Of a stretch of 64,000 nt of DNA, positions 13,271 through 53,709 are shown piece after piece. This DNA is from Patescibacteria group bacterium (GTDB taxonomy: Bacteria > Patescibacteriota > Patescibacteriia > 2-01-FULL-39-33). The position numbers and the translations under genes are program-made. Position 1 is the stretch's first letter, and each line of letters begins with the position of its first letter. The stretch covers positions 145,685 through 209,684 of the forward strand of contig JBAZKF010000001.1 of assembly GCA_041650895.1 (NCBI GenBank), in the 5' to 3' direction. The notes beneath the pieces are model-generated. The model was not told where the DNA came from and did no database searches. It was given only the letters and a program-made list of their open reading frames with translations.

Positions 13271-13302
13271 ATTTTTTAACGATAAATATATAATCTGATT
13301 AA

Positions 13303-14454: not shown

Positions 14455-14456
14455 AA

Positions 14457-15194: not shown

Positions 15195-15219
15195 AATTTT
15201 AACTGGCAATTATGTAAAT

Positions 15220-21367: not shown

Positions 21368-21370
21368 AAG

Positions 21371-22411: not shown

Positions 22412-22494
22412 ACAGTTAAAAGTTACAAATTACTAATTACTTAATTAATTCAATCAAATACGTTACTGCCTTAATCTAATATTCACTCCCTTAT

Positions 22495-22503
22495 ATTATA
22501 CCA
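22495..22503 (-). promoter_or_regulatory. extended -10 element (TGGTATAAT) just downstream of the GtrA stop, reading into the SDR-GT2-DUF2304-GT2 cassette
   Basis: The minus strand reads TTTTGTGGTATAATATAAGGGAG. There is no good -35. Confidence 0.35.
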
Positions 22504-22524
22504 CAAAATAATAACCCCAGACAA

Positions 22525-22944
22525 CTATCTCTTGAAAGTCCAGAAACGATTTAAACTGAAATTAAAAATAGCGACAATAAACGAAGAGACGGCTTTGGCC
22601 AACAAGTCTGGAATATGCACCAATTCGATCAATAAGCTCAAAAGGCATAAATTCAATGACAAACTTATAATATTGGCAACAAAAAATTTAGCATACTGCC
22701 ATTTCAAACCAGCGCTATGATGACGGAAGGTCCACTTGCGATTCAACTCAAAACTCCAGGTTACAGCCACAGCAAAAGAAATAATGGAAGCGACAAGATA
22801 GTGCAGACCGAATAGGCGGGTCATCAGCCAATAGACGCCCAAATCAACCAAAAAATTAGATGTGCCAACCAGGCAGAATTTGATAAACTGCCGGAACAGT
22901 GACTGTTTGAATAACGGCAACTGATAAATCCTTTCTTTTATCAT
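22525..22944 (-). CDS. GtrA-family membrane protein (polyprenyl-phosphate sugar translocation-associated)
   Basis: FRQFIKFCLVGTSNFLVDLGVYWLMTRLF ... NRKWTFR matches the GtrA family consensus; four TM helices. Start uncertain (22944 or 22992). Confidence 0.72.
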   Translation of the reverse strand: MIKERIYQLPLFKQSLFRQFIKFCLVGTSNFLVDLGVYWLMTRLFGLHYLVASIISFAVAVTWSFELNRKWTFRHHSAGLKWQYAKFFVANIISLSLNLCLLSLLIELVHIPDLLAKAVSSFIVAIFNFSLNRFWTFKR

Positions 22945-23010
22945 TTTTAACATAAAAGTCAGAACCATTAACTTTATTCCATTATAACACAAATCAAATT
23001 AAGTCAAAAC

Positions 23011-26011: not shown

Positions 26012-26837
26012 GCCCAAAATTATTCTTTCCTTTGATTTGGAATATTGGCATTCAAGCAAATTTTTGGAAAAATATTTAGCCGGAAAACAGGCTGACACTC
26101 CGCTACTGAACATAACTCTCTTGGAAAAAATTCTATCTCGGCTTAGCGACTATCCGAATGCCAGTGCCACTTTTTTTGTTCTGGCTGATTTAATGGATCG
26201 CTTCCCCGACTTACTGAAAAAAATCAAAGCTAGCGGCCAAGAAATCGCATTGCATGGTCTTAATCACACACCGATAGATCGCTTAAGCCCCGATGAATTC
26301 CAAAGGGATATAACCAAATCAACGGAAATCTTCCAACGTGTAATTAATGAAGCGCCAAAGGGATTCAGGGCGCCTAATTTTTCAATAAACAAAAGCAACA
26401 AATGGGCCTGGGAAACACTGGGGAAAAACGACTTTGTTTATGATTCAAGTTATTTCCCGTTCTCCTCTGATCCGACAGGGTTAACGCCGATCCAACCCTA
26501 CAAATTAATGACTGAAGCCGCACTCTTAGAATATCCCATTTCAACTTTCCGCTGGCTCGGGATCAATTGGCCAATATCGGGCGGTCTTTATTTCCGCCTG
26601 TTGCCTTATCCGATTTTCTCTTACTTGTTAAAGAAAAAAATCTCAAAAAACCAATTAGTGGTGCTTTATTTCCACTTAATGGATTTGGATGAATCAATAC
26701 CAAACATAAAAATCCCTCACTGGCGCAAAACTTTAAAATATTTCGGCGTCAAAAAAAGTTGGAATAAATTCAACCGACTGCTGAATGATTTTTCCGTTGA
26801 GAGCATTGAACAACATAGGATTAACCATGGCCATTAA
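25998..26837 (+). CDS. polysaccharide deacetylase-family protein (CE4-related, PEP-CTERM-locus subtype-like)
   Basis: KIILSFDLEYWH ... TFFVLADL ... IALHGLNHT resembles the DUF3473/CE4 deacetylase family found in EPS loci. Confidence 0.65.
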   Translation: MNDNKPKIILSFDLEYWHSSKFLEKYLAGKQADTPLLNITLLEKILSRLSDYPNASATFFVLADLMDRFPDLLKKIKASGQEIALHGLNHTPIDRLSPDEFQRDITKSTEIFQRVINEAPKGFRAPNFSINKSNKWAWETLGKNDFVYDSSYFPFSSDPTGLTPIQPYKLMTEAALLEYPISTFRWLGINWPISGGLYFRLLPYPIFSYLLKKKISKNQLVVLYFHLMDLDESIPNIKIPHWRKTLKYFGVKKSWNKFNRLLNDFSVESIEQHRINHGH

Positions 26838-27828
26838 AGAGCTGACAAAAGACCAAGAACAAGCTTGGGAAAATTTCTTAAACAATTGCGAAGAATCTAA
26901 CTTCTCCCATAGTCTTAGAATGCGAAAAATTATCCGCGACAATTATGGATTCGCTGATAATTACCTGGTTAGCACCAACGACCGAGGATTAATCGTCGGG
27001 ATTCTGCCGCTTTTTAAGATCAACAAGAAAAAGTCAGTCTCATTGCCCTTCACTGACTCAGCCGGCTTTATCGGCAATGAATCAGCCTTATCGGAATTTG
27101 CTGATTACCTGATGAGACAAACTGCTAAGGATAGCAAGGAATATGAATTACGCCAAGCTGAGGCGAGAAACTTTAGCCAGGCATCGCTAAGCACCGACAA
27201 TATATCTTCGATGATTGATTTAAAAGAAGATTCAGACAACTTATGGAAGAGAATTGATAAAAAAGCCAGAAACCAGGTGCGCAAAGCCGAAAAATACAAT
27301 CCGGAATATTTAAGACAAAAAGAATTATTAGCCGATTTTTACCTGCTCTATCTCAAATCAATGAAACGGCACGGCACGCCAGCCCATAAAGTGACTTTCT
27401 TTGCCAACATAATGGAACAATTTGACGGCATCATCTGCGCCGTTAAATACAATAATCAGACAGTCGCCGCCGCTTTGACTTTTATCCATAAGAATATATT
27501 GCATATTCCTTGGGCGGCCTCTGACAGAAAGTTTAAATCATTAAATTTTAATGACTACCTCTACTGGCGGATGATTTCTGAATCATGCGACAGGGGGCTT
27601 GACGGAGTAGATCTCGGCAGATCGCAAGTTGATTCCCCTGTAGCCAAATTCAAAAATCAATGGGATTGCCGCGATACCGTTCTGCAATACTATTTAATAT
27701 CATCAAAAAGAAAAAATAATAAAGCACCACAAAAATCCGGGTTACGTTATTTAGCAAAGATTTACCGTTTATTGCCATTAAATATCACTGCCCTAATCGG
27801 TCCCCGACTAAGGAAATACCTGCCCTAA
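26827..27828 (+). CDS. FemAB-like / GNAT-fold acyl(aminoacyl)transferase (EPS-locus associated)
   Basis: Start at ATG 26827 (MAIKELTKDQ) with AGGA upstream. The architecture resembles the FemAB-related proteins that accompany deacetylases in PEP-CTERM EPS loci. Weak, fold-level call. Confidence 0.5.
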   Translation: MAIKELTKDQEQAWENFLNNCEESNFSHSLRMRKIIRDNYGFADNYLVSTNDRGLIVGILPLFKINKKKSVSLPFTDSAGFIGNESALSEFADYLMRQTAKDSKEYELRQAEARNFSQASLSTDNISSMIDLKEDSDNLWKRIDKKARNQVRKAEKYNPEYLRQKELLADFYLLYLKSMKRHGTPAHKVTFFANIMEQFDGIICAVKYNNQTVAAALTFIHKNILHIPWAASDRKFKSLNFNDYLYWRMISESCDRGLDGVDLGRSQVDSPVAKFKNQWDCRDTVLQYYLISSKRKNNKAPQKSGLRYLAKIYRLLPLNITALIGPRLRKYLP

Positions 27829-29254: not shown

Positions 29255-30682
29255 CTATTTAAGGACGTTTTTAAAAATGTTAAGTCCCAGCAGAATATCT
29301 TTCAAGTCTGCCAGGGACTTGATTTTTTTTAGCCGATAAATAATATATTTCGGACGTAAATAAAACTTAATAAAGGCTTTGCGTTTTAATTTCAGCAGGG
29401 TATCACTGCTTAAATCGGGCAAATCCATCGGCGGTATATGATTGGAGACTGAACAAAAATCACTCCAATCAAAATCTTTCCTGATGTATCCGCGAGCCTT
29501 TGCTTCTTCATACATGGGAGTTCCCGGATAAGGAATGGCAACAAAAAAGGCTGCTGTGTCCAGATCCAAGCTACAAGCAAAATCAATCGTCTGATTAACC
29601 GTCCAAGGATCTTCGTCAATATAACCAATAATGAATGCTCCGGAAACCAAGATGTCGTTTTTACGGCATAAGTCAACGGCTATTCTAGCTTGTTCCAGTG
29701 TGGCGCCCTTGCACATCTTATCTAAAATTCTCTGCGAGCCCGATTCAAAACCAAAACCGATCCTTTTACAGCCGGCCCGTCTCATTAACTTGAGCATTTC
29801 ATTATTTACCGAATCAACTCTGGCCATAACCACCCAAGAGATATCCAGCTTCCGCCGGATAATCTCTTCACAAAATTCCTTCACTCTATCTTTATTAGCC
29901 GTAAAGAGTTCGTCATGGAAATTAAAAGAAGTAGCCTGGTAATTTTTCATGCATTCTTCAATCTCGGCCAAAACATTACTCACACTCCTAGTACGATAGC
30001 GCCTTTTCCAAACTGATTCCGCCATGCAAAAACCGCAACGATAAGGACAGCCGCGGCCGGATATGATATTAATCGCCTGCCCCGAGTCCGTCGTTCTGGT
30101 CGGCGGCAAGTAATACTTTTCAACCGGCAATAAATCACGAGCCGGGAACGGTATGGTATCAAGATTATCAATCAGCGGGCGGGGTTCTGTTATTAATATT
30201 TCAGCATTATCGCGATAAGCGATGCCTTTAATCACCCCGAAATCGACTTGCTCGGATATTAAGGCGCGGATTAATTCCAAAAAAGTGACTTCCCCTTCGC
30301 CCAAGACGCAAAAATCTATTGCCGGCATACCCCGCATTGTTTCTTCGGCGGCAATTGTCGGATGTGGCCCGCCGACAATGATTTTTATTGCGGGATTAAT
30401 GACTTTTATCCGCCGCGTAATTTCTTTGAGTTGTTTATAGACAGGCGTGGGGAAAGTCAAAGCGATAAATTGCGGCATGATTTCCTTAATCTTTTCATCT
30501 ATCTGATCATAGGACATTTCCAATGCCTCACCGTCAAGAATTGTTATTTCTACTTCCTGTTCATATTGGCGCAAATAAGCCGCCAGATAAGCCAAATTAA
30601 GCGGAGCGGTTTTCCCACCCTGCCCTTCGATACCGTCATAATTAGTGAAAGGCGGATTAATCAATAAAAGTTTATACTTCAT
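29255..30682 (-). CDS. cobalamin-binding radical SAM enzyme, paralog 2
   Basis: MKYKLLLINPP..., DTIPFPARDLLP, SGRGCPYRCGFC. Confidence 0.9.
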   Translation of the reverse strand: MKYKLLLINPPFTNYDGIEGQGGKTAPLNLAYLAAYLRQYEQEVEITILDGEALEMSYDQIDEKIKEIMPQFIALTFPTPVYKQLKEITRRIKVINPAIKIIVGGPHPTIAAEETMRGMPAIDFCVLGEGEVTFLELIRALISEQVDFGVIKGIAYRDNAEILITEPRPLIDNLDTIPFPARDLLPVEKYYLPPTRTTDSGQAINIISGRGCPYRCGFCMAESVWKRRYRTRSVSNVLAEIEECMKNYQATSFNFHDELFTANKDRVKEFCEEIIRRKLDISWVVMARVDSVNNEMLKLMRRAGCKRIGFGFESGSQRILDKMCKGATLEQARIAVDLCRKNDILVSGAFIIGYIDEDPWTVNQTIDFACSLDLDTAAFFVAIPYPGTPMYEEAKARGYIRKDFDWSDFCSVSNHIPPMDLPDLSSDTLLKLKRKAFIKFYLRPKYIIYRLKKIKSLADLKDILLGLNIFKNVLK

Positions 30683-31653
30683 AAGTCGGTCTTTTTAAAA
30701 AAATTCTTTACGGGTAAAAAAATAGCAATTAAAATTAATAAATAAGCGAGACTAAACAAATGTACTATGAAACCAGAAATAATAGACGCTTCCTTATTTA
30801 AGCCTAATAGTCCGAAGCTGATAGCCCAACCTGTTTCATAAGTTCCGAAGTCCCACAATCCCTGGATAGGCAAAAAACTTATTAATTGACTAAAAATCAA
30901 ACCCAGAGTTACTTTAAGCCAGTTAAAATCTATATTTAGGGCACGGAAAAAAACTACGATCATTAAAGAAGCGGACGCCAGCCACAAGAACGAAATCAAC
31001 AAATTAGTCAAGTAAACGGGCCAGGAACGAATTGTTTTGACGCTTGTTGCAACCTCTTCCAACTTAGTAGCCAGCTTAGCGCCAAATTGAAATTTAGTCA
31101 ATCTTGCCCAATGCATTAAAATAACAACCGCTTTAACCAGCCAATCAAGGTAGAATAATATGGCAATCGTGGCTAACCCAAGCATAAAACAGCTTAGATA
31201 GATTCTATTAGGCGGAATGTAGCCGGGGTTAAGCAAAATAAAACCGATCAGAAAAGAAAAAGCCACTGCCAAAAGATCAAAAAATCTGGCTACCAACAGG
31301 ACACTAAGCCCTTCTGCTATGGCTACATTCTCACGTTTTTTTATGAAATAAACAAAACTTAACTCACCGCTTCTAAACGGCATTAAATTACAAAAAAAAG
31401 TATAACCCAAAGTAATTTTCAAGGAACTCAAAAAACTTATTTTCTTAGAAAGAATCAAGACTTGCCAGCGCCAAGCCCGCAAACAAACGCCGATAAAATA
31501 AAAAATAAACGCGATTAAAGCGTAAGTCCATGATATATTTGAAATAATATCCCTGGCTTGAGTGAAATCAATCTGAGTTAAAAGCAAACACAATAAAATT
31601 ATGGTTACGGCCAAGGAGATTGTTTTTTTGCGCTTGGTTATCTTTTTCAACAT
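30679..31653 (-). CDS. UPF0104 / LPG-synthase-TM-like flippase-like membrane protein
   Basis: 324 aa with eight TM helices. The N-terminus MLKKITKRKKTISLAVTIILLCLLL...LRAWRWQVLL is characteristic of this family, which is commonly paired with polyprenyl-phosphate GT2s. Confidence 0.6.
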   Translation of the reverse strand: MLKKITKRKKTISLAVTIILLCLLLTQIDFTQARDIISNISWTYALIAFIFYFIGVCLRAWRWQVLILSKKISFLSSLKITLGYTFFCNLMPFRSGELSFVYFIKKRENVAIAEGLSVLLVARFFDLLAVAFSFLIGFILLNPGYIPPNRIYLSCFMLGLATIAILFYLDWLVKAVVILMHWARLTKFQFGAKLATKLEEVATSVKTIRSWPVYLTNLLISFLWLASASLMIVVFFRALNIDFNWLKVTLGLIFSQLISFLPIQGLWDFGTYETGWAISFGLLGLNKEASIISGFIVHLFSLAYLLILIAIFLPVKNFFKKTDL

Positions 31654-33488
31654 TATTTTATCAAGTTAAGAAACCACATCTTGCCGGGACTGGTTTCAGC
31701 TTCTATTATTCCCGCCTGAGGCCAATCGACAATGTTTATCGCTTGGCTACTGGAGGAAATCTGCCCCGCTAATTCAGCATCATAACCAATTATATATTTT
31801 ACATTATAAACGTCAAAAGCCGACTGAAGTTTTTGCTCCTGCAATAAATGGTTGATAGTATTCGGAGAAAAATAGACAGTTGATACTCCGGTTAAATAAT
31901 TCAACAGAGGATGCAATGACCTATTGCCTACGGCCACCGCCTCTTCCGGTTTGATGGCGACACCCCAAGAACTGATTTGCTCAGCTGAATAAGCAATTTT
32001 CAAATTTATATTATTATCATATCCCCGGCCCCAATAGACATGATTAGCCTGGACTAAGCCATAAATGATTAAAAGAATAATCACCCCGCCGGCCAGCCGA
32101 CTAAATCTCTTTGCAACATAATAATCGCTGATCATCTTAGCTAAGCTCATCAAGCCCAGACTGATAAAAAGAGCAATCACCCAACCCCAATCCATTAAAT
32201 GATTGCGTGAGGCCAGAACGACGTAACTGGAAATAAAAATAGAAAACACCAGCCAACTGACAAAAAGATTGGTTAGATTCTTGTCTCGACGACTCAAGTC
32301 TTTAATACCCAATAACATTAAAATAAAAAACAGTGATCCGCCAATATACTCCAAGGCGAGAAATCGAGAAAGATGCGCCAGCAGATTATTGGATCCGACA
32401 AGAGCCCGCTCCGCCAAATTGATGGGGCGTATGCCGATATTGGCCCCCACCTTAATCAAGTCAATGCTCTTCAATAATCCTCGACCAGCTATGTCGGAAT
32501 TAAATTTGTCTAAAACCGTTTTCTGATCAAAATAAAAAGTATAGGGATCGGGGAAAAGATGGCCGTAAAAATTAAACTCAGACCAATTATTGGTTTGCGT
32601 CTCGCTGGCAAAAAACACCCTGAAATAATCATTATTACCGCTAAAACCGAATATCGCCGGCAACCAGAAAAAAGCTAATATTACAAAAAAAGGAACAAAC
32701 ACCAAACTGATGTTTCCAAGACTGCTTTTGACGGCATTGTTCCTTAAACCGGTTAAGACGGTTTTAAAACGTAACCAAATCAATCGGAAAAAAGACAAAT
32801 CCGTACGGGAATCGATAATAAGGGGTTGCTCTGAGGACTGAAAAATCAACCAAAAAAATAAAACTGGCGGAAATAAGAACATCACTTCCCGCGACAGGCA
32901 AGCTAGCGACAAAAAGACTCCGGACAAAGGCAGAAAAAAATATCTGCCCTTGACTTTACGGCCGATAAAAAACAAAACGCAAAAAACTGAAAAATACAGC
33001 ATCGCGAATTCGTAGGTGCCGATAGTTTGAACCATCTGGGAATTAAACGGCAATAAGATATAAACCAAAGAAAATATTGCGGCTATTTCCCAATCAAACA
33101 AATAAAACACGACGGCCGCAAATAAAACCAAAGCCAATGCCTGAATAATTACGGCAATGACTATTAAAGTGTTGAAATCTGGCAAGCCGATCAACTGAAA
33201 TAATGCAGCATAAGACCAGGTAGTAAACTTATTGCCCTGGGTACTGAGCTGAGCCCGCTGGCTGACTAAAGACGGCGCCAAAACGACATTGCGGCTGTCC
33301 TCCATGCCGTAAACCCCCGTTTGGACAAGATTCCTGGCCAAAATAAAATTCTCCGCTTCGGCCGGTTGGGCAGTACTGCCCTTAAAAAAAACCGGAAAAT
33401 ACCAAAAACCGGCTGCAACAAAAAAAACTACGGGCAATAAAACAAAAAGAATCGAGCTCTTAAACCTAAAATTTGGCTGTTGCGACAT
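31653..33488 (-). CDS. large polytopic membrane protein, unknown function (candidate GT-C-like glycosyltransferase or polymerase)
   Basis: 611 aa with more than 12 TM helices and a C-terminal soluble region of about 150 aa. No recognisable motif. Confidence 0.5.
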   Translation of the reverse strand: MSQQPNFRFKSSILFVLLPVVFFVAAGFWYFPVFFKGSTAQPAEAENFILARNLVQTGVYGMEDSRNVVLAPSLVSQRAQLSTQGNKFTTWSYAALFQLIGLPDFNTLIVIAVIIQALALVLFAAVVFYLFDWEIAAIFSLVYILLPFNSQMVQTIGTYEFAMLYFSVFCVLFFIGRKVKGRYFFLPLSGVFLSLACLSREVMFLFPPVLFFWLIFQSSEQPLIIDSRTDLSFFRLIWLRFKTVLTGLRNNAVKSSLGNISLVFVPFFVILAFFWLPAIFGFSGNNDYFRVFFASETQTNNWSEFNFYGHLFPDPYTFYFDQKTVLDKFNSDIAGRGLLKSIDLIKVGANIGIRPINLAERALVGSNNLLAHLSRFLALEYIGGSLFFILMLLGIKDLSRRDKNLTNLFVSWLVFSIFISSYVVLASRNHLMDWGWVIALFISLGLMSLAKMISDYYVAKRFSRLAGGVIILLIIYGLVQANHVYWGRGYDNNINLKIAYSAEQISSWGVAIKPEEAVAVGNRSLHPLLNYLTGVSTVYFSPNTINHLLQEQKLQSAFDVYNVKYIIGYDAELAGQISSSSQAINIVDWPQAGIIEAETSPGKMWFLNLIK

Positions 33489-34589: not shown

Positions 34590-35546
34590 TTAATCTAGAT
34601 TAAATAACTGCTCTAATTGGTTATTGCTGATCTTTTTTAATCGGCTATTCCTCATTCTGGCATGAAAAATATCAAATGAATTAATAATTATGGAGACAAG
34701 GCTTTTCATAAAGGGCTGGAGATCGGCGGGTTGTCTAAGGCAATGGGCGATATTAAAACGGATATTAAGAGGCAATGATCTGATCAAAAGCAATGCCGGA
34801 TAATTCCTTAGCATAATCAATAGCCGATTACGCATCCACAGGTAGACCGTCCGCTTATTGCCTATTGTCTTATTTACGGTCACGCTCAAACCATGATAGC
34901 TAACGCTGTTTGGCTGATAAACAACTTGATATCCGGCAATATTAACCCTCAACGACAAATCAGTATCTTCATAACCATGATAATATTTTTCGCAGAAACC
35001 ACCGATTTTCTCCAAAACACTGCGCCTGATAATCATGGAAGCGCTACAGGCATAAAGAACCTGCCGACGCTGATTATATTTTGGATCGCTTGATTCTGCG
35101 CCAATACCAATATCATAGCCTTTACCGCGAAACAATATACTACCGCCGGCAGCAGCGATTTTTTCCGGCATACCAGCGAAAAGAATCTTACCTACAGCCT
35201 GGCCGACATTACCATTTGAATCCATTAATCGCACCATCTCAGCCAACCAGGTTTTAGAAAGAACGGCGTCATTATCCATAGTCACTACATATTCAGCTCG
35301 GCCGGAATCAATCCCTTTATTACGCGCCGCCGCCGGACCCAGGTTAGCCTTATTCTCAATAACGGTAATTCCAGGATAGTGCCGTCGAAAATAATCCACT
35401 GAGTCATCCGGAGAATGGTCATCAACCAAAATAATATTATAGTCAATATACGTTGAATCCAACAAAGAGTCAAGGCATTTCGCGGTCAATTCCTTGTTCT
35501 TGTAATTACAAACCACAATATCAATTTTGGGATTAATTTGATTCAT
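34590..35546 (-). CDS. glycosyltransferase family 2
   Basis: IDIVVCNYKNKELTAKCLDSL ... ILVDDHSPDDS ... TMDNDA. Confidence 0.85.
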   Translation of the reverse strand: MNQINPKIDIVVCNYKNKELTAKCLDSLLDSTYIDYNIILVDDHSPDDSVDYFRRHYPGITVIENKANLGPAAARNKGIDSGRAEYVVTMDNDAVLSKTWLAEMVRLMDSNGNVGQAVGKILFAGMPEKIAAAGGSILFRGKGYDIGIGAESSDPKYNQRRQVLYACSASMIIRRSVLEKIGGFCEKYYHGYEDTDLSLRVNIAGYQVVYQPNSVSYHGLSVTVNKTIGNKRTVYLWMRNRLLIMLRNYPALLLIRSLPLNIRFNIAHCLRQPADLQPFMKSLVSIIINSFDIFHARMRNSRLKKISNNQLEQLFNLD

Positions 35547-43671: not shown

Positions 43672-45021
43672 TTATTTTTTAAAAATCACTTCCTGCCAAA
43701 AAACCGGTTTATACCAATATCCTCGGCCGTATTTAAGGCGATTCTTATAATCCCTTAAGAACAATAAACTCCAAAAAGGCTTCAATTCGGTATTAATCAA
43801 TCCCGCATATTTTTCAATATTATTCCAATGCAACCTTTTACCGGGGAATTTATTTTTTATCCGCTCGAATAAAACGGTTCCAGGATAAGGGATAACGGGC
43901 AAAAATTGTTTAACTTGCAAATTATTTTCGACAATAAAATCTATAGTTTCTTTAATGGTCTGCCGATTTTCTCCCGGTGCGTTCAATAAAACACAATACC
44001 CTCCGGCTACGCCGTTCTCTTTTAAGATATCAATCGCCGATCGTAAATCTGCCGAAGTTATTTTTTTATTAATTTCAATTAAAACCCTGTCACTGGCGGA
44101 CTCCATGCCTAAATTTACATTAATACATCCGGCTCGCTTGACTAAAGGCATAATCCCCCTACTCTTAATGATATCAGTCGCCCGGGCATTGGCGCCCCAA
44201 GAAAACCTGAGGCCTCGATCAATGATAGCTGAACAAATCCTCTCTACCCTGTCGCCATCAATAAAAAATTCCCAGTCCTGAAAAAAAACTGATTTAATTT
44301 GAAAATTATTTATCAAGTACTCAATCTCTTCTATTACTTTTTCAACACTCCTAACAATATAACGTCCGGGCATCATGGCCTTAAGGCAGAAAACACAATT
44401 GTAAGGGCAGCCGCGCGAAGTCATTATGACAGAAAAAGGCTTCTCATAATCATTGCTGGAATATTTATCCATCGGCAACAGATCATAGGCCGGCAAAGGC
44501 AAAACATCCAGATCAATGATTCTCTCACTTGGATTATTCACGATTTTGCCGCCTTGACGATAAGACAAGCCGGAAACTTTCGAAAATGCCTGCTCTGCGG
44601 CCAGGGTAACAATCAAATCAGACGCGGATAATTCTGGCTCACCCCTGATAATAAAATCAACTTGGCAATTATCAAACACCCATTCTGGCATAGTGGTGCC
44701 GTGACTGCCGATCAATATTTTGTACTTAACCTTTACCCGGTCTATAATCTTAAAAATGTTTTCAATATGGGAATTAGGGCACTCCCAGCGGTCAATCGGC
44801 GTAGAGGTAATAATGAAGGCCTCGGGACCGAAATCATTGACTGCCTGGTAAATGGATTCTAACGGCAAATTCAAAACATTGGCATCCAATAATTTGATAT
44901 CGTGGCCGGCCTGCCTTAAAATAGAGGCGATAATAGCCATCGACAACGGCTGCCTGGCCCTGACATTCATAATTGACTTCTTCTCCTGGTTAAAATTAGG
45001 AATTAATAAAAATATTTTCAT
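43672..45021 (-). CDS. cobalamin-binding radical SAM enzyme, paralog 6
   Basis: Start moved to ATG 45021 (MKIFLLIPNF), which removes the 173-nt overlap with the upstream gene. DVLPLPAYDLLP, TSRGCPYNCVFC. Confidence 0.85.
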   Translation of the reverse strand: MKIFLLIPNFNQEKKSIMNVRARQPLSMAIIASILRQAGHDIKLLDANVLNLPLESIYQAVNDFGPEAFIITSTPIDRWECPNSHIENIFKIIDRVKVKYKILIGSHGTTMPEWVFDNCQVDFIIRGEPELSASDLIVTLAAEQAFSKVSGLSYRQGGKIVNNPSERIIDLDVLPLPAYDLLPMDKYSSNDYEKPFSVIMTSRGCPYNCVFCLKAMMPGRYIVRSVEKVIEEIEYLINNFQIKSVFFQDWEFFIDGDRVERICSAIIDRGLRFSWGANARATDIIKSRGIMPLVKRAGCINVNLGMESASDRVLIEINKKITSADLRSAIDILKENGVAGGYCVLLNAPGENRQTIKETIDFIVENNLQVKQFLPVIPYPGTVLFERIKNKFPGKRLHWNNIEKYAGLINTELKPFWSLLFLRDYKNRLKYGRGYWYKPVFWQEVIFKK

Positions 45022-45034
45022 TTTATCGATTAAG

Positions 45035-47599
45035 TTAATCATTGATATAAACCGCTTTGCAACATCTGGAACAAATCGGTAACGAATGCTTGAATAAATA
45101 TTGACGGAATTTTTGGTAATCATTGGACAGCCAAATCTCATCAGGAGTCTTATCCAATAAGCTCCCGAAAGATTTTTCAATGATATCGCACCAAACAACT
45201 TCGCCACGCTGATTAATGCGCAACTCGGGCTGCAATAATTTCAAACAAAAAGGCCGGGACGGTTTCTGACCCAAATACTGCGGTAAGTTATGATAATAAT
45301 TCAACGGAGAGAAATTAACAAAACAGCCAGTCTTAAGTCCGTACAATCTGATTTTAGCCAATTTTTTCTTCAACTCTACGGCGTCAGTATCAGGAGGAAA
45401 AATAGGATCCCTAATCTGCGTATTAAGGCGGTAATCGCGGCCCTCTTCCCAGCCAAACTCCCGATTAAAAATACTCTTGGCTTGAGCTACGTCGGCAGAT
45501 GAATAAACTTGCTCAAATAAGACATTAATTGTTGTAATGCCTAATTTTTTAGTGGTATCAATCAATTCAAAAAATTTATCTACATTATCATTAATTAACA
45601 AGGTGGCGAAAATGGTAATAGGAACTTTAGGCATTTTGGCCTGCAAAAGCTTAATGGCCCGCTCCAACCGATCAAAAGTACCCGGTACGCCCCTAATAGC
45701 GTCATGTAACTCCTTGGGACCGTCCAGCGAGGTTAGAATATCAGTCAGATGCTTATAACCCGCTAATTGATCAATATTACGCTCATTAATAAGCGTACAG
45801 TTAGTTTGAAGGATTACCCGTTTACCGAGAGAATCCCAAAAAGCAATAAGCTGCAAAATATCTTGGCGGGCGAATGGTTCGCCGCCGACTAATTTTATTT
45901 CTTCCACCTGGCTGGACATTTTTTTAAACACCTCAAGAATCTGTTCAGCTGACAATTCCTGCTGGCGTAAATTCCTATTCTCTCCTTGATAACACATCTT
46001 ACAACGCAAATTGCATCTGATGGTCGGTTCATAGCCGACTTCATAAACTAGCGGGGACTCGGTTTGAAAAGGCAGAGCCGGCGCTTGAATAAATTTTTTA
46101 ACCCTGATAATCGCCAACCTATTCCGCCGCCAATCATAAAATATTTTTGCCAGCGGAGAGATTATTGGCACGGCTTTTACCGCTTTTTTAAGCTGATGCT
46201 TATTATTTTTCAAATAAGTTAAGAATAATCCGCAATCATAAACTAAAGGCGAAAAGAAAAAGACATAAACCGGCAGGCGATAACGCGCCAAGACAAAGGG
46301 CGAGACCATCAAAGCGGTATACAGAATTATCATCACTGCAAAAATGAAAAATAGCAGTTTATCCCGATCTTTAAAATAAGAATAAATTAAGGCGATAGCC
46401 AAGGCCAGAGAACTAATACCCCATAAAGCAACACCGGCCAAATAAGTTAATAGTTTAAGATTAATCTGTTTGATGAAGTCAAAAATTCCCTGCCAGTTGC
46501 CATTCAAGATAAATCCGGTGATATCCGGTTTAGAAAACTCCCCAGTGCAAGCCGACCACATCTCGAAGTATCCGGGCTGAAAAAAGAAAGGTATTGTCCT
46601 AATCAGATGAACCTTAAGATAGCCGCCCAGATTGCCTAATATATAAGCCTTGGCCGTTTGACTGTAATAATCCAGCTCGCGATTGAATTCAGATAAGCTG
46701 ACTGACAGGCAATCGCCTTGATTGCCGATATTTTTCCCCAGAGCGCTATCGGCTTGCCGGACAATAAGATTATAAGCATCAGCGTAAGGAATTTGTCTCT
46801 GATAAGAGATCAGCGCTGGCAGATTATAAAAATAAATATTAGTATCAAATAGATTGACCAAAGCCGGCCGATTATAAACAACCTTATTCCTAATAATGAT
46901 CGGCGAAATCACCGCAAAAAATACAATCATGAAAGCAACACAACTTAACAAAATCTTGCGCCAACTCAACTTCGCCAATCCGCCGGTCGGTACGAGTTTC
47001 CGAACCAAATAAACTAAAACAAGACCGGCTGGAAATATTAAAAGCAAGGGGGAAGTATTTTGCCTAGCTAATGTTGAAATGCCGAGCCAAAAAGCGCTCA
47101 GCAACAAATCCCTGCTCTTAGCGCTGGAGAAAAATTTCAAAAAATAATATGTGCCGCCTAAAAATAACGGGATGGCCAAATTCTCGCTGACCAACAAAAA
47201 ATTATGCCAAGCCCAATAAGGTTCAATGGCAATCAAAAAAGTAACCAACAAAGAAATCTTCTCGTTAAAAAACAAGCGAACCAGCTTATAGCCGATGATT
47301 AAGGTCACGAAAGCCAAAACTACTTGCGCCAAATAAATCGTCCATTCCCCTCCCAACCAATGCAATAAGACCGAAGTCGTCAAGTAATACAATGGCGGAT
47401 GCCAATCACAGTAATCGTGAAAAATACCCAATAAAACAGAAACAGCCGGCTGAGCCTGGTTATAAAAATTCTGCCAACCGCCTTTATTTAAGCTGGCCTG
47501 CCAAAAAGTGATAAAAATTGAAATACGCACCGCCAGAAAAGCGGCGACAATGACCAGCCATGACCGATATTTAAAAACGATATTTCTTATATTTGACAT
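45035..47599 (-). CDS. fusion protein: N-terminal polytopic membrane domain (about 480 aa, GT-C-like) plus C-terminal radical SAM/SPASM domain (about 350 aa)
   Basis: The first roughly 480 aa are hydrophobic with 11-13 TM helices. Then come EPTIRCNLRCKMCYQG (CxxxCxxC), VGGEPFARQD, and a C-terminal LPICSRCCKA cluster. The C-terminal domain is similar to the stand-alone 33498..34586 protein. Confidence 0.75.
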   Translation of the reverse strand: MSNIRNIVFKYRSWLVIVAAFLAVRISIFITFWQASLNKGGWQNFYNQAQPAVSVLLGIFHDYCDWHPPLYYLTTSVLLHWLGGEWTIYLAQVVLAFVTLIIGYKLVRLFFNEKISLLVTFLIAIEPYWAWHNFLLVSENLAIPLFLGGTYYFLKFFSSAKSRDLLLSAFWLGISTLARQNTSPLLLIFPAGLVLVYLVRKLVPTGGLAKLSWRKILLSCVAFMIVFFAVISPIIIRNKVVYNRPALVNLFDTNIYFYNLPALISYQRQIPYADAYNLIVRQADSALGKNIGNQGDCLSVSLSEFNRELDYYSQTAKAYILGNLGGYLKVHLIRTIPFFFQPGYFEMWSACTGEFSKPDITGFILNGNWQGIFDFIKQINLKLLTYLAGVALWGISSLALAIALIYSYFKDRDKLLFFIFAVMIILYTALMVSPFVLARYRLPVYVFFFSPLVYDCGLFLTYLKNNKHQLKKAVKAVPIISPLAKIFYDWRRNRLAIIRVKKFIQAPALPFQTESPLVYEVGYEPTIRCNLRCKMCYQGENRNLRQQELSAEQILEVFKKMSSQVEEIKLVGGEPFARQDILQLIAFWDSLGKRVILQTNCTLINERNIDQLAGYKHLTDILTSLDGPKELHDAIRGVPGTFDRLERAIKLLQAKMPKVPITIFATLLINDNVDKFFELIDTTKKLGITTINVLFEQVYSSADVAQAKSIFNREFGWEEGRDYRLNTQIRDPIFPPDTDAVELKKKLAKIRLYGLKTGCFVNFSPLNYYHNLPQYLGQKPSRPFCLKLLQPELRINQRGEVVWCDIIEKSFGSLLDKTPDEIWLSNDYQKFRQYLFKHSLPICSRCCKAVYIND

Positions 47600-47610
47600 A
47601 GTATTTTCTG

Positions 47611-49050
47611 TTATTGCTGCTTTTTACCGCTAAGGATCCACTCGCACAGTGCTAGAAATCCTAAAAAATAAATTTTAACGTGTTTCGGGCTTCTTAGACG
47701 TTTCACATAATTAAGGATAATCCGCGGACGAAAATAAAATTTACGGAAAAACAAGCGATTAGAAGCTATAAGTTCCTCCCGCGTCAAGCCGAACGGCACG
47801 AAAACCGGCTCCCATTCGTTCATTTTTTTCCAATCCTTATCAAAAGTCCCATACTGGGAATAATTGCCGCTGATTTCCGAACCGGGCAATGGCGTCATTA
47901 GAGTGCAATGGAATTCGTCAATTTTAAGTGACAGCGCAAAATCGATCGTTTCTTTGATCGTCTCGCGGGTTTCCCCGGGATGGCCCATGATAAAAAACGC
48001 GCCCACATCAATTCCTGCCCCCTTAGTCCAGTTGATAGCGCTTCTAATCTGCTCCTTAGTGGTGTTTTTCTTAATTAATTTTAAAATGTTTTCATTGCCT
48101 GATTCCACGCCATACCAAACCTGCCAACAGCCCGCCTCCTTCATTACTTTAAACATTTCCGGCTCAACCATATCAACGCGGGCTAAGGCTGTCCAGACCA
48201 AATCCAATTTTTTTTCTTTCAGCAGTTCGCAAAATTTGTAAAGACGCGGCTTAAAAACCGTAAAATTATCATCGCGAAACTGAATCTCCCTGATGCCGTA
48301 TTTATAATAAAGCAACAAGACCAGCTCCATCATATATTCCGCAGAATGAGCCGACAGGACGTTGCCATAAACGCTTCTAGTGCAGAATGTGCACTGACCA
48401 GGACAACCTCTTGAAGTAACTAAAGTTGAAGCGGGAAATTTTTTAACCGTATGAACCGGCGGAGAATATTTGACTAAATCGGGCAATAAATCAAAAGCCG
48501 GTTGAGGTAAGGCGTCAAGATCAATAATTCTGGCACGCGGCGCTGTAATAATAAATTCATCCGACACATCAGATTTAAAAATCAATCCATTAACCTGTCT
48601 TAACTGATCCTTGCTCAAGCCGTTTTGAGATAATATCGATAATAACTCAACCAAGGTCCTCTCACCCTCGCCGATAATCCCCAAATCGAATTTGGGATAA
48701 AGCTTCAGGGTTTCTTCCGGCGCCGTGCTCAAATGATGGCCGCCGATCAAAGTGATTATGCCAGGTTTGATCTTTTTAATTTCCCGAGCAACCGCCGCCG
48801 CGTTATCAATAGAGATAGTAACTGCCGTAAAACCAACAATGGCGGGATCGGCTGCCAAGACTCGTTCTGTAGTTGCAACGGTGCCCAAATCCATAATTTC
48901 CGCATCAATAATACTAACCTCATGACCCGCCGCCCTGACGGCAGCCGCCAAATATACCAGTCCCAAAGGAATAGACTCTCCCCCGCTTTTGCTTTTTATC
49001 CCATATCTTTCTTCTAAAGTTAATGGGGGTTGGACTAAAATTATTCTCAT
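47611..49050 (-). CDS. cobalamin-binding radical SAM enzyme, paralog 7
   Basis: MRIILVQPP..., DALPQPAFDLLP, TSRGCPGQCTFCTRSV. Confidence 0.9.
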   Translation of the reverse strand: MRIILVQPPLTLEERYGIKSKSGGESIPLGLVYLAAAVRAAGHEVSIIDAEIMDLGTVATTERVLAADPAIVGFTAVTISIDNAAAVAREIKKIKPGIITLIGGHHLSTAPEETLKLYPKFDLGIIGEGERTLVELLSILSQNGLSKDQLRQVNGLIFKSDVSDEFIITAPRARIIDLDALPQPAFDLLPDLVKYSPPVHTVKKFPASTLVTSRGCPGQCTFCTRSVYGNVLSAHSAEYMMELVLLLYYKYGIREIQFRDDNFTVFKPRLYKFCELLKEKKLDLVWTALARVDMVEPEMFKVMKEAGCWQVWYGVESGNENILKLIKKNTTKEQIRSAINWTKGAGIDVGAFFIMGHPGETRETIKETIDFALSLKIDEFHCTLMTPLPGSEISGNYSQYGTFDKDWKKMNEWEPVFVPFGLTREELIASNRLFFRKFYFRPRIILNYVKRLRSPKHVKIYFLGFLALCEWILSGKKQQ

Positions 49051-50434: not shown

Positions 50435-51553
50435 TTATGAATTAATGAAAGAGACGATTTTTTCAGCGCGCTTCTTCCAAGTATATTTTTCCGCATCGCT
50501 CCGGGCGCAACGAGAGATATTCTCGGCTAATTGCCGTTGCGTCAAAGCCCGGTTAATGCCCGCCGCTAAAAGATCAGAATTATCCGGCTCAACTAAAATA
50601 GCATTATTATCATTTAAAATTTCCCTCAAAGAAGGCAAATTAGAAGCGACTATAGGTACGCCACTGGCTAAATATTCAAAAAGTTTAAGCGGTGAAGTAT
50701 AAAATTGCGATATTTTTTCCTGCCCGGAATTAGGCAAAACCAAAACATCAGCGGCCTTCAGATAGAACGGGATTTGCTTATGCGGCTGATGGCCGAGAAT
50801 TAAGACATTAGCGCTATTGACATTTTTTTTCTTAAAAGCTTCAACATCTTCCTTAGTACCGCCGATAAAAACAACCAGGGATTCATTAGACAGATACCGG
50901 GCGGCTTCAGCCAAAACCTGCGCTCCTTTCCAACCATAAAGATGGCCGGTGTAAACAATCAATTTTTTATCCAACGGCAAATTAATTTTTTTCCTGGACT
51001 CCGTGGCGGTAATATTCAGATCAAACTCAGCCAAATCAACGCCATCGGGAGCAATTAATATTTTATCAGCAGCGATTCCGTTGCTGGCCAGAGCGGATTT
51101 AATAAAATCAGTCAGAACAACAATCCGTTGAAAACACCGCCAAAAAAGACGATGATACGATTTGATTGTTGCAGGCAAGGAGTGAAGTTCCAAAAAAGAC
51201 GATTTAAAAAATAAGCCGAACTGTTCTTCGCGTGTATATATAATATCATACTCCCTGAAAGACACGTAGATTCTGCTGGCTAACAAAAAAGTTGCAGTCG
51301 CCAGCCAAAAAGCCAGATTACCAATTGTTTTATCCAAAAAAATCAAATCTAAACAGGGTAATTCGGTAATCTTAAAATTAGCCGGTAAACCGTAATAGTT
51401 GAAGGGATCGGCTTTAAGATTATTAGAACGCCGCGGTACCACCAATTCAACTTGATGACCCAAAACAGAGAAAGTCTCGCACATTTTCATGATTTGCCAG
51501 CCATGAGCCTTCTCGGTCGGTATTCTGATGTTTGCCAAATAAATTATTTTCAT
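50435..51553 (-). CDS. glycosyltransferase family 4
   Basis: Start at MKIIYLANI directly after the upstream stop. C-terminal FEYLASGVPIVASN. Confidence 0.8.
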   Translation of the reverse strand: MKIIYLANIRIPTEKAHGWQIMKMCETFSVLGHQVELVVPRRSNNLKADPFNYYGLPANFKITELPCLDLIFLDKTIGNLAFWLATATFLLASRIYVSFREYDIIYTREEQFGLFFKSSFLELHSLPATIKSYHRLFWRCFQRIVVLTDFIKSALASNGIAADKILIAPDGVDLAEFDLNITATESRKKINLPLDKKLIVYTGHLYGWKGAQVLAEAARYLSNESLVVFIGGTKEDVEAFKKKNVNSANVLILGHQPHKQIPFYLKAADVLVLPNSGQEKISQFYTSPLKLFEYLASGVPIVASNLPSLREILNDNNAILVEPDNSDLLAAGINRALTQRQLAENISRCARSDAEKYTWKKRAEKIVSFINS

Positions 51554-53709
51554 TTTTTTGTTTTTACTAAATAACACATTTGATGGCCGAACATATTAGG
51601 CCAAATATCTTTAAGACGAAAACCATTAGACGATTTAAATCTAACAACATCTAGACCCAAATCATTCAGCCAAATCAAAAAATCCTTATGGCTCCAAAAC
51701 CGCAGGTGTTCTGACGGATGTGTCATCCATTGGGTAAAAAATCTTCCTCCAAACATTAAGCCGAAACGATAACGGTAAAAAGCGGAATTAGGAACTGAAA
51801 TTGCCAAATAGTCGGCATTATCTTTTATTTTAGAGATTAAATCCTCGGGATATTTGATGTGTTCCAAAACCTCTGAAATCACAATGTAATCATATCGGTC
51901 GTCCAAATTAAAATCAGCGCTCTCGATATCGGCTTTTACTCCGTCAATGCCGGCTTGCTTTAAGTTATTGATTACTAATCCGGAAATATCCAAACCACTG
52001 ACCCGGCAACCCTTCTTTTCTTTTAATTCATAAGGCAGACGCGAACTGCCACAGCCAAGATCCAGAATTTTAGCTCCGGGCTTAATCCAATCCATAAAAA
52101 TCACTTCCCTTTCCATTAATTTGCTACGCATCTTGAAGCCGCGCTCTGACCAATACTGATCATAATCAAGTTGTTTGGTGATATTTTTGAAATCAGGGCG
52201 ACGCGTACCCTCAAAGAAGAACGATTTCGAGACGCGAGCTATGATTTTGTCAAAATAATACTTAAGCGCGCGCTTGACTTTGAATAATATAAAATCTAAA
52301 CGCTCTTTTTTGTTACCCAACTTAAGCCAGATTTTTGCCAGCTTCAAAAAGTGGGTTAAGCCTCTCTTTTTTACGCCCTCAAATATCTCCTGACGCCAAC
52401 TCTCAAATAATTTTCCCAACTCCTGGGAATCACTGACGCCAGAACGATTGAATTTGTCCTGGCTTTGGAAAAAAGAGAAATTACAATAATCGGAGGTATT
52501 GATACGACCCTTAAAAAAATCATTAAAAAGCTTCGTCCCTGGCAGGGCGGTAAAGATACTGAAAGAATAATGATCAGCTTTGATTTTCTTGGCGAATTCA
52601 AAGGTTTGCCGCATTTCTTCTTTAGTTTCGCCGGGCAGGCCGATCATAAAGCCGGCTTCGCGACGGATGCCGTGTTTCCGGCAAAGTTCCAGGGCTTTTT
52701 CCACATCGGATAATTTTATCCTTTTATTAATGATTTCATCTAAAACGCGCTGATTACCCGATTCAACGCCAAAATCAAGCTGTAAACAGCCACTTTCGGC
52801 CATTAACTTGATGATTTCTTCATTAACCAAATCCACTCGCGATTGAGCCCCCCAATACAGACCGGCTTCCTTCATAATCTGGCAAACCTTCCTAACATGA
52901 TCGTAATTAGCCGTTAAGGTATCATCAGCAAACCAAATTCCTTCAACGCCATATTTATCCCTTAAAAGATAGATTTCTTTTTTGATGTTTTCCAAACTGC
53001 GATAACGCACCTGACGCCCAAAAACCTGATTGCAGGCGCAAAAAGTGCAGCTGTAGGGACAGCCCCGGGAAGCCATAACCATCACCGCTTTCATAGGGAT
53101 GCCTCGGATAATATCGTCCCAGATCTTAGTATAGTAGGTCATATTCACCTTATCATAAGCCGGCAAGCTTAAATCAGTCAGATCCATATACTCCCGCCGT
53201 TCATTGATGACAACTTCATTATTCTGATCCGGCCAGGCGATGCCCTTCACCTTCCTTAGATCGGGCGACTCCTGCTGTAATTCCTTAATTAATTCAAAAG
53301 TAGTTTGTTCGCCTTCGCCGATAATGGCGGCATCAAAGCCGGAATTAACTACGCCAATCGGATCGGCTGTAGCTTGAGGCCCGCCGATAATCGAAAAAAC
53401 TTTGAGTTCTTTTTTAATCCTCTGATTCATTTCCACAGCTTCGGCAATTTCCATGGTCGTGGCAGTAAAACCGATTACTTGCGGCTTAAACTCTAAAACA
53501 GCCTTAATGATCTCCTCCTTGGCTCTTTCACGATTATCGTATTGATAGCCTCTGTCCGCGAATATTTTCCCGTCGATAATCAAATTATCAAAACCATGAT
53601 CCCGCAAATATCCGGAAATATACATCAAACCCAAAGAATAACGATGCTCCTTGAGCCGTTTAGGGGGAAGAATAAAAATCAAATCTTTATCTTGGCTAAT
53701 TTTTATCAT
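51550..53709 (-). CDS. fusion: cobalamin-binding radical SAM (paralog 8) plus C-terminal class I SAM-dependent methyltransferase domain
   Basis: TDLSLPAYD and ASRGCPYSCTFCACNQ in the N-terminal 470 aa. The C-terminal 200 aa carry ILDLGCGSSRLPY ... YDYIVISEVLEHI (MT motifs I and II). Confidence 0.85.
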   Translation of the reverse strand: MIKISQDKDLIFILPPKRLKEHRYSLGLMYISGYLRDHGFDNLIIDGKIFADRGYQYDNRERAKEEIIKAVLEFKPQVIGFTATTMEIAEAVEMNQRIKKELKVFSIIGGPQATADPIGVVNSGFDAAIIGEGEQTTFELIKELQQESPDLRKVKGIAWPDQNNEVVINERREYMDLTDLSLPAYDKVNMTYYTKIWDDIIRGIPMKAVMVMASRGCPYSCTFCACNQVFGRQVRYRSLENIKKEIYLLRDKYGVEGIWFADDTLTANYDHVRKVCQIMKEAGLYWGAQSRVDLVNEEIIKLMAESGCLQLDFGVESGNQRVLDEIINKRIKLSDVEKALELCRKHGIRREAGFMIGLPGETKEEMRQTFEFAKKIKADHYSFSIFTALPGTKLFNDFFKGRINTSDYCNFSFFQSQDKFNRSGVSDSQELGKLFESWRQEIFEGVKKRGLTHFLKLAKIWLKLGNKKERLDFILFKVKRALKYYFDKIIARVSKSFFFEGTRRPDFKNITKQLDYDQYWSERGFKMRSKLMEREVIFMDWIKPGAKILDLGCGSSRLPYELKEKKGCRVSGLDISGLVINNLKQAGIDGVKADIESADFNLDDRYDYIVISEVLEHIKYPEDLISKIKDNADYLAISVPNSAFYRYRFGLMFGGRFFTQWMTHPSEHLRFWSHKDFLIWLNDLGLDVVRFKSSNGFRLKDIWPNMFGHQMCYLVKTKK

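Follow-up and report, generated by a model that had tools for sequence, protein, structure and literature searches.

A patescibacterial gene joining a GT-C-fold membrane domain to a twitch-like radical SAM domain, and its possible role in the editing of polyprenyl-phosphate sugars

Gene organization and domain layout

The window analysed here is a stretch of 64,000 nucleotides (nt) from a Patescibacteria group bacterium (GenBank assembly GCA_041650895.1, contig JBAZKF010000001.1, positions 145,685 to 209,684), and all coordinates below refer to it. The element in question is a single gene on its minus strand, encoding a polytopic membrane domain of the glycosyltransferase GT-C fold followed by a radical S-adenosylmethionine (SAM) domain with an auxiliary iron-sulfur (Fe-S) cluster region (Table 1). 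The gene is one open reading frame (ORF) with an ATG start, 854 amino acids (aa) and no internal stop in the ORF list, and an exact look-up found the same 854-aa sequence on record as one called gene on a 957,791-bp contig, under the title "MAG: radical SAM protein [Patescibacteria group bacterium]" (MAG, metagenome-assembled genome). Thus, the union of a membrane domain and a radical SAM domain in one ORF, as read in the initial annotation, was confirmed by the ORF list and by Pfam, which places PMT_2 at aa 67-218 (33.4 bits, cutoff 26.1), Radical_SAM at aa 523-681 (85.1 bits) and SPASM at aa 790-846 (30.4 bits, cutoff 21.5). The motifs quoted at that stage, CNLRCKMC, GGEPF and CSRCC, are all found as well, the protein containing IRCNLRCKMCYQG (C529/C533/C536), LVGGEPF and PICSRCCKA (C843/C846/C847). 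The AlphaFold2 (AF2) model of the whole chain has a predicted local distance difference test score (pLDDT) of 94.1 and a predicted template modelling score (pTM) of 0.83.

Regarding the boundaries, the hydrophobic N-terminal part was correctly recognized, but its length is about 465 aa and not the 480 aa initially estimated, and the domain junction, formerly placed near 46100, lies at aa ~465-470 (window ~46190-46205) according to the alignment with stand-alone radical SAM proteins. The gene is tightly packed between its neighbours: the stop codon of the upstream gene occupies 47611-47613, 11 nt ahead of the fusion ATG, and the downstream gene most likely starts with the ATG at 45021, 13 nt past the fusion stop, a choice on which its 449-aa orthologue bears. 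The 173-nt overlap with the downstream gene in the ORF list is a product of the longest-ORF rule.

The membrane domain

The GT-C-like nature proposed for the N-terminal half was confirmed by structural comparison of the AF2 model, whose neighbours, with their values in that comparison, are AglB (22.5), Pmt4 (21.4; 310 residues, 3.2 Å), GPI-MT-I (19.7), ALG12 (19.7), ArnT (19.6), AftA (16.3) and PglB (15.2). Both the polytopic GT-C fold and a PMT_2 match above the curated threshold are present, as expected for a member of the GT-C families, and in one homolog (P0152) the PMT_2 match reaches 54.1 bits. At the sequence level, a single-sequence search and a 24-sequence profile retrieved nothing meaningful among solved structures, and hhalign against Escherichia coli ArnT gave a probability of 0.1%, which is not significant.

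The first extracytoplasmic loop (EL1) carries a near-invariant motif, with its CDWH core identical in 20 of the 20 closest homologs. Within it, D65 is invariant in those 20 sequences and conserved in at least 95% of the 33 aligned sequences carrying a GT-C domain, and E126, further along the chain, is conserved at 96%. The EL1 position aligned with the GD(T/S)xEY of distant PMT_2 relatives reads GGWxNFY (window 47384-47480, aa 40-72), so the identity of the catalytic carboxylate (D65 or E126) is uncertain. A new invariant motif, FH[DE]xCDWHPP, stands beside the HPP turn. D65 is a candidate catalytic or metal-binding carboxylate, and the catalytic residue of the domain may have shifted to another position. 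The invariant C64 and C297, located in two different outside loops, may form a disulfide. As for the donor, the GT-C domain would use a polyprenyl-phosphate-linked sugar, judging from the glycosyltransferase family 2 (GT2) protein similar to DPMS, ArnC and GtrB that is present in the module and in fused relatives.

The radical SAM domain

The C-terminal half is, as first described, a complete radical SAM enzyme with an auxiliary domain of the SPASM/twitch type, as can be seen from its motifs and from Pfam: it has the CX3CX2C motif, the GGE SAM-binding motif and the partial TIM barrel of the superfamily. The designation of the auxiliary domain as SPASM requires a correction, since the Pfam SPASM match stands but the full seven-cysteine motif is absent, and the five conserved cysteines are twitch-like. 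Among 75-81 homologs, C785, C804, C843, C846 and C847 are conserved at 97-100%, compared to just 64% for C759, and R845 and K848 are invariant. The full SPASM arrangement (CX9-15GX4C ... CX2CX5CX3C ... C) was rejected because CX2CX5CX3C is replaced by CX2CC, the ligands being sufficient for one cluster. Meanwhile, the twitch pattern of the BtrN type is present (C785-x13-G799-x4-C804 and C843-x2-C846), and the auxiliary segment aligns with the BtrN C-terminal region in a profile comparison (E 2e-4). The five cysteines would therefore provide the ligands for one auxiliary cluster and leave one spare invariant cysteine, C847. Orthology to BtrN, a 2-deoxy-scyllo-inosamine dehydrogenase, was also considered and rejected, as full-length similarity and an equivalog-level score were not found.

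The structural neighbours of this half are SkfB (23.0), BlsE (22.9), anSME (22.2), ChlB (21.3), viperin (19.8), DesII (17.8) and BtrN (15.0), with peptide-acting and sugar-acting enzymes both represented and none standing out as the nearest. In sequence searches, its similarity to solved radical SAM enzymes is limited to the level of the core, and the clusters of its more distant relatives have generic names ("radical SAM protein"). Many basic residues are invariant (R542, R636, K787, R794, R845 and K848) and, together with the basic linker that precedes the barrel and is probably membrane-interfacial, they would fit an anionic phosphate-sugar substrate at the membrane surface.

Membrane topology

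For the topology, AF2 helices were taken as segment boundaries and the lysine plus arginine (K+R) content per residue was counted for each loop in 32 homologs. The values alternate clearly from loop to loop. The loops assigned to the inside are rich in basic residues, with 0.19 for the N-terminus, 0.28 for each of 104-113, 158-163 and 199-215, 0.35 for 406-414 and 0.23 for 461-520, which includes the radical SAM linker. The outside loops have lower values (0.04 for 38-84, 0.00 for 133-138 and 0.10 for 243-380), and two short outside loops with higher K+R owe it to invariant arginines, R179 in one and R439 and R441 in the other. A 14-residue helix (69-82) is interfacial and not membrane-spanning, and a helical extracytoplasmic domain is formed by aa ~243-380 between crossings 7 and 8. 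The charge pattern and the AF2 helices indicate ten crossings plus interfacial helices, instead of the 11-13 transmembrane segments counted before, with both termini cytoplasmic. Moreover, no other arrangement would leave both the N-terminal GT2 of the triple fusions described below and the C-terminal Fe-S/SAM domain in the cytoplasm, where they need to be.

Conserved loops on the outer face are a general feature of GT-C proteins, and the same is predicted here, where the outer-face elements comprise FH[DE]xCDWHPPLYY of EL1, E126-P127, R179, the helical domain 243-380, R439-Y-R-L-P, C64 and C297. The predicted orientation is that of the GT-C families, with a cytoplasmic N-terminus and extracytoplasmic active-site loops. 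Consequently, the suggestion that radical chemistry takes place at the site of GT-C sugar transfer does not agree with the positive-inside pattern, the triple-fusion GT2 and the Fe-S/SAM constraint, which put the radical SAM domain on the cytoplasmic side of the membrane and the GT-C loops outside. With this topology, the two activities would be separated by the membrane and would have to be connected through a lipid-linked intermediate that is flipped.

Fused, split and triple-fused forms

Among 5.8 billion proteins searched, fused GT-C and radical SAM homologs were recovered at 84, 81 and 48-52% identity, along with three triple fusions of 1076-1084 aa (45-50% identity) that have an added N-terminal GT2 (GT2, GT-C and radical SAM, in this order). 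Overall, the fused homologs number about 10, show 45-84% identity and lie on separate contigs of various samples and assemblies. Another fused copy, of 855 aa, is found in a Buchananbacteria reference MAG (locus L012), and the closest named relative of the fusion protein is from Candidatus Buchananbacteria. The continuity of the assembly over the domain junction is upheld by an independent JGI contig of 2,114 nt, on which a 100%-identical fragment covers approximately the C-terminal 59% of the protein and crosses the junction.

In the same syntenic cluster of another locus (L005), the two halves are split genes, with a 472-aa GT-C followed by a 388-aa radical SAM protein, and they overlap by 32 nt in different frames. 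As seen in the alignment, the whole stand-alone radical SAM protein is contained in the fused one, including its basic N-terminal extension KKxIxKxPxxxxxAKxxYDW; a small frame-changing indel inside the overlap would turn the split form into the fused form or the reverse. When 1.84 billion cluster representatives were scanned exhaustively with HMMER, the full fusion was detected in only two 50%-identity clusters, compared to more than 100 clusters with the stand-alone radical SAM protein of ~385 aa, indicating that the fusion is a rare variant of a common gene pair. The fusion of GT-C and radical SAM domains is real and conserved.

Partnership of radical SAM and GT-C proteins in other loci

Scanning 185,579 species-representative genomes with a profile of the radical SAM domain yielded 21 loci, distributed among lineages of the Candidate Phyla Radiation (CPR), Fischerbacteria, Acidobacteriota, Chloroflexota and one Sphingomonadaceae MAG. 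A GT-C is fused or directly adjacent in 9 of the 21, including Chloroflexota, Vicinamibacterales and Sphingomonadaceae. In the distant loci, where the radical SAM proteins are 28-36% identical, all six adjacent polytopic proteins tested belong to Pfam PMT_2, and one relative (P0140) is flanked on both sides by PMT/PMT_2 genes. The gene order GT2, B12-binding radical SAM, GT-C and twitch radical SAM, in some cases followed by another B12-binding radical SAM, recurs in five loci (L001, L005, L006, L012 and L017). The Acidobacteriota loci retain the twitch radical SAM, the B12-binding radical SAM and the small GT2, with or without a short-chain dehydrogenase/reductase (SDR) or PMT_2 gene.

A second pair is present in the window itself, where another radical SAM gene lies immediately upstream of a 611-aa protein of GT-C fold (Table 1). 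This stand-alone paralog, said earlier to share the architecture of the fusion, is real and has a twitch-like cysteine pattern, but it is merely 28% identical over the radical SAM core. The unfused pair is kept in a genome whose GT-C is 44% identical. Two sequence-unrelated pairs of radical SAM and GT-C in one cluster, one of them fused, are strong evidence of a functional partnership.

Some further associations were observed. Related radical SAM/SPASM domains of ~30% identity (P0203, P0206, P0213, P0236 and P0280) are fused to glycan-type partners, namely a Wzx flippase, which is another polytopic membrane fusion, GT4, B12-binding radical SAM, GT28 and a Gfo/Idh/MocA oxidoreductase, suggesting a broad and uncharacterized clade of radical SAM enzymes in glycan pathways. 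The gene that immediately follows the second GT-C, at 30679-31653 on the minus strand, encodes a protein of the LPG_synthase_TM family (the MprF flippase-domain family), an association kept in L033 and L034, and this protein may be a flippase for a lipid-linked intermediate. In a Paceibacter-type locus (L007, 4245-5999), a 584-aa polytopic protein lies directly upstream of a 58%-identical radical SAM protein; it matches no Pfam family, shows no similarity by BLAST to either of the two GT-C proteins of the window, and may represent a third cryptic GT-C-like partner family.

The surrounding glycan cluster

Housekeeping genes fill the first 12 kb of the window, and from ~19.2 kb to past its end every gene is assigned to glycan biosynthesis. 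This cluster of at least 45 kb contains an initiating Bac_transf phosphoglycosyl transferase, a Wzx flippase, proteins of the GtrA and LPG_synthase_TM families, GT4, GT2 and GT9 enzymes, deacetylases, SAM methyltransferases, a FemAB-like protein and an SDR. Due to surroundings that are wholly dedicated to glycan biosynthesis, a carbohydrate or lipid-linked carbohydrate is a far more plausible substrate of the radical SAM domain than a peptide. In addition, the parts of an Arn/Gtr-type pathway occur in this one locus (polyprenyl-phosphate GT2 enzymes, the GtrA family and two GT-C folds), with functions assigned by homology and thus putative.

DPMS, ArnC and GtrB are the best solved relatives of the small GT2 encoded two genes ahead of the fusion gene; this GT2 shares 59% identity with the GT2 domain of the triple fusions and 27% with E. 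coli ArnC. The GT2 at 34590-35546 was considered as a third ArnC-type synthase serving the second pair and was rejected, being an ordinary GT2.

Ten genes for B12-binding radical SAM enzymes are found within ~35 kb (27833-63013), two of them adjoining the fusion gene. Together with the two twitch radical SAM genes, they represent an extraordinary density for a CPR genome of ~1 Mb. None of these ten reaches an NCBIfam equivalog cutoff, and C-methylation is one possibility for their role in the glycan. One of them (51550-53709, minus strand) is a 719-aa fusion of a B12-binding radical SAM domain with a C-terminal MetW-like class I SAM methyltransferase, kept in L001, L006 and L012 and divided into two genes in L005.

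A sub-operon at 20705-22992 on the minus strand consists of a small GT2 (220 aa), a NAD-dependent epimerase/dehydratase of the SDR type and the GtrA-family protein. SDR genes also adjoin distant radical SAM relatives in L021, L028 and L029, and the SDR of the sub-operon could supply the reductase for a keto-sugar intermediate. At 26785-27828 on the plus strand, a FemAB-like/GNAT-fold protein is located beside a deacetylase-DUF3473 protein and a B12-binding radical SAM protein, a hint that the glycan carries an aminoacyl or peptide substituent. At 12347-15209 on the minus strand, immediately beyond the glycan cluster, there are genes for LUD-domain, 4Fe-4S and CCG-domain proteins resembling LutABC, of the lactate utilization type.

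Bacteria of the CPR/Patescibacteria have tiny genomes. The devotion of at least 45 kb (~5% of the ~0.96 Mb contig) and ~12 radical SAM genes to one surface glycan suggests that its product is central to the lifestyle of this organism, e.g., in host attachment or envelope integrity.

Table 1. Features of the fusion gene and its cluster, in window coordinates
Feature	Position	Strand	Remarks
Whole fusion gene: GT-C, linker, radical SAM and twitch-like auxiliary domain	45035..47599	minus	NCBI MFA5124388.1
GT-C fold membrane domain, aa 1-465	46205..47599	minus	ten predicted crossings, N-terminus inside
EL1 motif H61-D-Y-C64-D65-W-H67-P-P-L-Y-Y	47384..47419	minus	near-invariant in the 20 closest homologs
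Basic two-helix linker, aa 466-518	46046..46204	minus	corresponds to the conserved N-terminal extension of stand-alone radical SAM proteins
Radical SAM partial-barrel core, aa 519-735	45395..46045	minus	CX3CX2C (C529/C533/C536) at 45992-46015; GGE motif
Twitch-like auxiliary cluster region	45059..45247	minus	C785-x13-G-x4-C804 ... C843-x2-C846-C847
B12-binding radical SAM gene	47611..49050	minus	directly upstream of the fusion, between GT2 and fusion; order kept elsewhere
Small GT2, 231 aa	49069..49764	minus	two genes upstream of the fusion; probable polyprenyl-phosphate sugar synthase
B12-binding radical SAM gene	43672..45021	minus	directly downstream of the fusion; kept downstream of fused, split and triple-fused forms
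Second twitch-like radical SAM, 362 aa	33498..34586	minus	CX3CX2C C42/C46/C49; C277-x12-G-x4-C295; C332/C334/C338
611-aa polytopic protein	31653..33488	minus	no Pfam match, GT-C fold; unfused partner of the second radical SAM
Second small DPMS-like GT2, 231 aa	57163..57858	minus	41% identical to the triple-fusion GT2 domain
GtrA-family small membrane protein	22525..22992	minus	candidate polyprenyl-phosphate-sugar flippase
B12-binding radical SAM genes (starts)	27833(+), 29255, 35551, 39562, 42255, 43672, 47611, 51550, 57874, 61568

Proposed pathway and alternative substrates

Taken together, the fusion protein is proposed to be a bifunctional inner-membrane enzyme of a conserved four-part module (DPMS/ArnC-like GT2, B12-binding radical SAM, GT-C and twitch-type radical SAM) in a surface-glycan cluster, in which the radical SAM domain edits a polyprenyl-phosphate sugar and the GT-C domain transfers the flipped product; a probability of about one half is given to this reading. 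By homology, the GT2 would first charge polyprenyl phosphate, on the cytoplasmic side of the membrane, with a sugar taken from a nucleotide sugar. Then, the cytoplasmic radical SAM domain, kept at the membrane through the fusion or, in the split forms, through its basic N-terminal helices, would use SAM and two [4Fe-4S] clusters to abstract a hydrogen from the lipid-linked sugar and edit it, the neighbouring B12-binding radical SAM enzymes probably contributing C-methyl groups. The edited polyprenyl-phosphate sugar would be flipped, with the GtrA-like protein and others in the cluster as candidate flippases, and the GT-C domain would finally pass the sugar to an acceptor at the surface, either a glycan or a protein.

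Several observations weigh against this proposal. The canonical acidic EL1 motif is replaced by GGWxNFY, and catalysis by the GT-C domain would need D65 or E126. An adjacent GT-C is lacking in 12 of the 21 reference loci, though two of those contigs are short, meaning that the coupling is frequent and not obligatory. Also, the fold neighbours of the radical SAM domain mix peptide-modifying enzymes (SkfB, SuiB, anSME, ChlB and PqqE) with those modifying sugars or nucleotides (BlsE, DesII, viperin and BtrN), and the fold does not identify its substrate. No NCBIfam equivalog was matched, with all scores (AhbD, NirJ, HpnH, PqqE and others) far below their cutoffs, and the GtrA gene is 22 kb away from the fusion gene.

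Part of this evidence would agree with the editing of another intermediate, either a soluble nucleotide sugar or an undecaprenyl-diphosphate-linked repeat unit built by GT4 and GT2 enzymes before export by Wzx, the fusion to the GT-C merely anchoring the radical SAM domain in a membrane-associated complex. The Bac_transf enzyme, Wzx and the many cytoplasmic glycosyltransferases of the cluster would yield a lipid-diphosphate-linked oligosaccharide on the same face as the radical SAM domain, relatives of which occur as fusions with Wzx and with the soluble enzymes GT4 and GT28; no GT-C adjoins several of the close homologs, and the nearest sugar-acting structural neighbours (BlsE, DesII and viperin) take nucleotide-linked substrates. 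However, the specific adjacencies and fusions that are repeated are those with GT-C proteins and DPMS/ArnC-like GT2 enzymes, the triple fusions joining the maker and the user of a polyprenyl-monophosphate sugar, and the stand-alone radical SAM proteins keep the basic N-terminal extension, suggesting binding to the membrane surface. This alternative is credible, although we regard it as unlikely.

It is quite improbable that the domain is a protein or peptide maturase in the style of SkfB, SuiB or anSME, acting before export on an acceptor protein or on the GT-C itself, with the GT-C then glycosylating that protein outside. Ahead of the barrel there are just two helices and no Pfam match to PqqD/RRE, the flanking gaps of the gene leave no room for a precursor gene, and the syntenic clusters have no peptide-type gene; the seven-cysteine SPASM motif typical of most peptide maturases is absent, and the fusion partners of the relatives are all glycan enzymes.

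Slightly less probable still is an action on the lipid part, that is, the polyprenyl tail or another membrane lipid, as in HpnH or Tes/GDGT-MAS. The membrane tethering of the domain would suit it, and weak family-level matches exist with HpnH (72 bits, the cutoff being 225) and with structures and families of tetraether synthases, but these scores are far under the family cutoffs and cover the common radical SAM core only. Moreover, a hydrocarbon tail is a poorer fit for the invariant basic residues than an anionic phosphate-sugar head group, and the context is entirely glycan.

Finally, an assembly, frameshift or gene-calling artefact, conceivable because related genomes have two separate genes overlapping by ~30 nt in different frames that a small frame-changing sequencing error could fuse, is practically dismissed by the occurrence of fused forms, at 45-84% identity, in 10 or more protein clusters that derive from distinct samples and assemblers (ENA, JGI, Logan and NCBI), by the JGI fragment across the junction, by a linker sequence conserved between fused and stand-alone forms with its frame undisturbed, and by an AF2 model of the entire chain at pLDDT 94.

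Returning to the editing of a polyprenyl-phosphate sugar, the type of radical chemistry can be suggested with little confidence. Oxidation to a keto sugar or epimerization is favoured, because the single auxiliary cluster matches twitch dehydrogenases, because the spare invariant C847 could donate a hydrogen atom as in radical epimerases, and because SDR or Gfo/Idh/MocA partners occur in some relatives; even so, this assignment is doubtful.

As a tentative generalization, radical SAM editing of polyprenyl-phosphate-linked sugars could be widespread and so far undescribed, with twitch radical SAM enzymes, as well as B12-binding ones, serving as dedicated GT-C partners among CPR, Chloroflexota, Acidobacteriota and part of the Proteobacteria. 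The triple fusions would then work as autonomous machines for making, radically editing and transferring the sugar across the membrane, and possibly for flipping it too, and the genome studied here, with its approximately ten B12-binding radical SAM enzymes, would build a heavily C-H-functionalized surface glycan of a kind not yet seen chemically.

If the proposal is true, it would add a new type of tailoring to envelope glycan biosynthesis, in which C-H activation takes place on the donor before flipping, and radical SAM enzymologists would have a defined and genetically delimited substrate hypothesis, namely whatever the partner GT2 produces. For expression and structural work, natural constructs are available in the split and fused forms.

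Comparison with known systems

To our knowledge, action on a lipid-linked sugar or coupling to a GT-C glycosyltransferase has not been shown for any radical SAM enzyme. In the literature covered, which was not exhaustive, there was no description of a fusion between GT-C and radical SAM domains or of a radical SAM enzyme acting on polyprenyl-linked sugars, and a 2026 review on lipid-modifying radical SAM enzymes mentions neither polyprenyl-linked sugars nor transmembrane fusions. BtrN, BlsE, DesII, AprD4, SpeY and viperin are soluble, have soluble substrates and are neither fused nor genetically coupled to a GT-C; their likeness to the fusion protein is limited to the core, and the latter has the extra invariant C847 and the basic N-terminal extension. 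Tes/GDGT-MAS and HpnH are radical SAM enzymes with membrane-embedded substrates; however, their targets are hydrocarbon tails, and they have no link to glycosyltransferases.

Both domains come from known families, and the pathway logic has known analogues. The closest parallels are found in three systems that prepare a lipid-linked sugar for a transferase on the outer side. The ArnC, ArnD, ArnE/F and ArnT series, which adds aminoarabinose to lipid A in Enterobacteria, follows a parallel logic, but the editor coupled here to the GT-C is a radical SAM domain and not a deformylase, and the GT2 upstream of the fusion lacks the C-terminal membrane helices of ArnC. We know of no CPR bacteria that make lipid A. 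Likewise, in Corynebacterineae, DprE1/DprE2 act as a decaprenyl-phosphoribose epimerase that supplies the GT-C arabinosyltransferases Emb and Aft; no DprE1-like flavoenzyme is present here, where the oxidant would be the twitch radical SAM domain and epimerization is hypothetical. Lastly, O-antigen glucosylation by GtrA, GtrB and GtrC shares the three-part logic of a GT2 (GtrB is among the best Protein Data Bank matches), a GtrA-family protein and a polytopic transferase that works on the outer side of the membrane. A sugar-editing enzyme is not part of the Gtr systems, whereas here radical SAM genes are inserted between these parts or fused to them.

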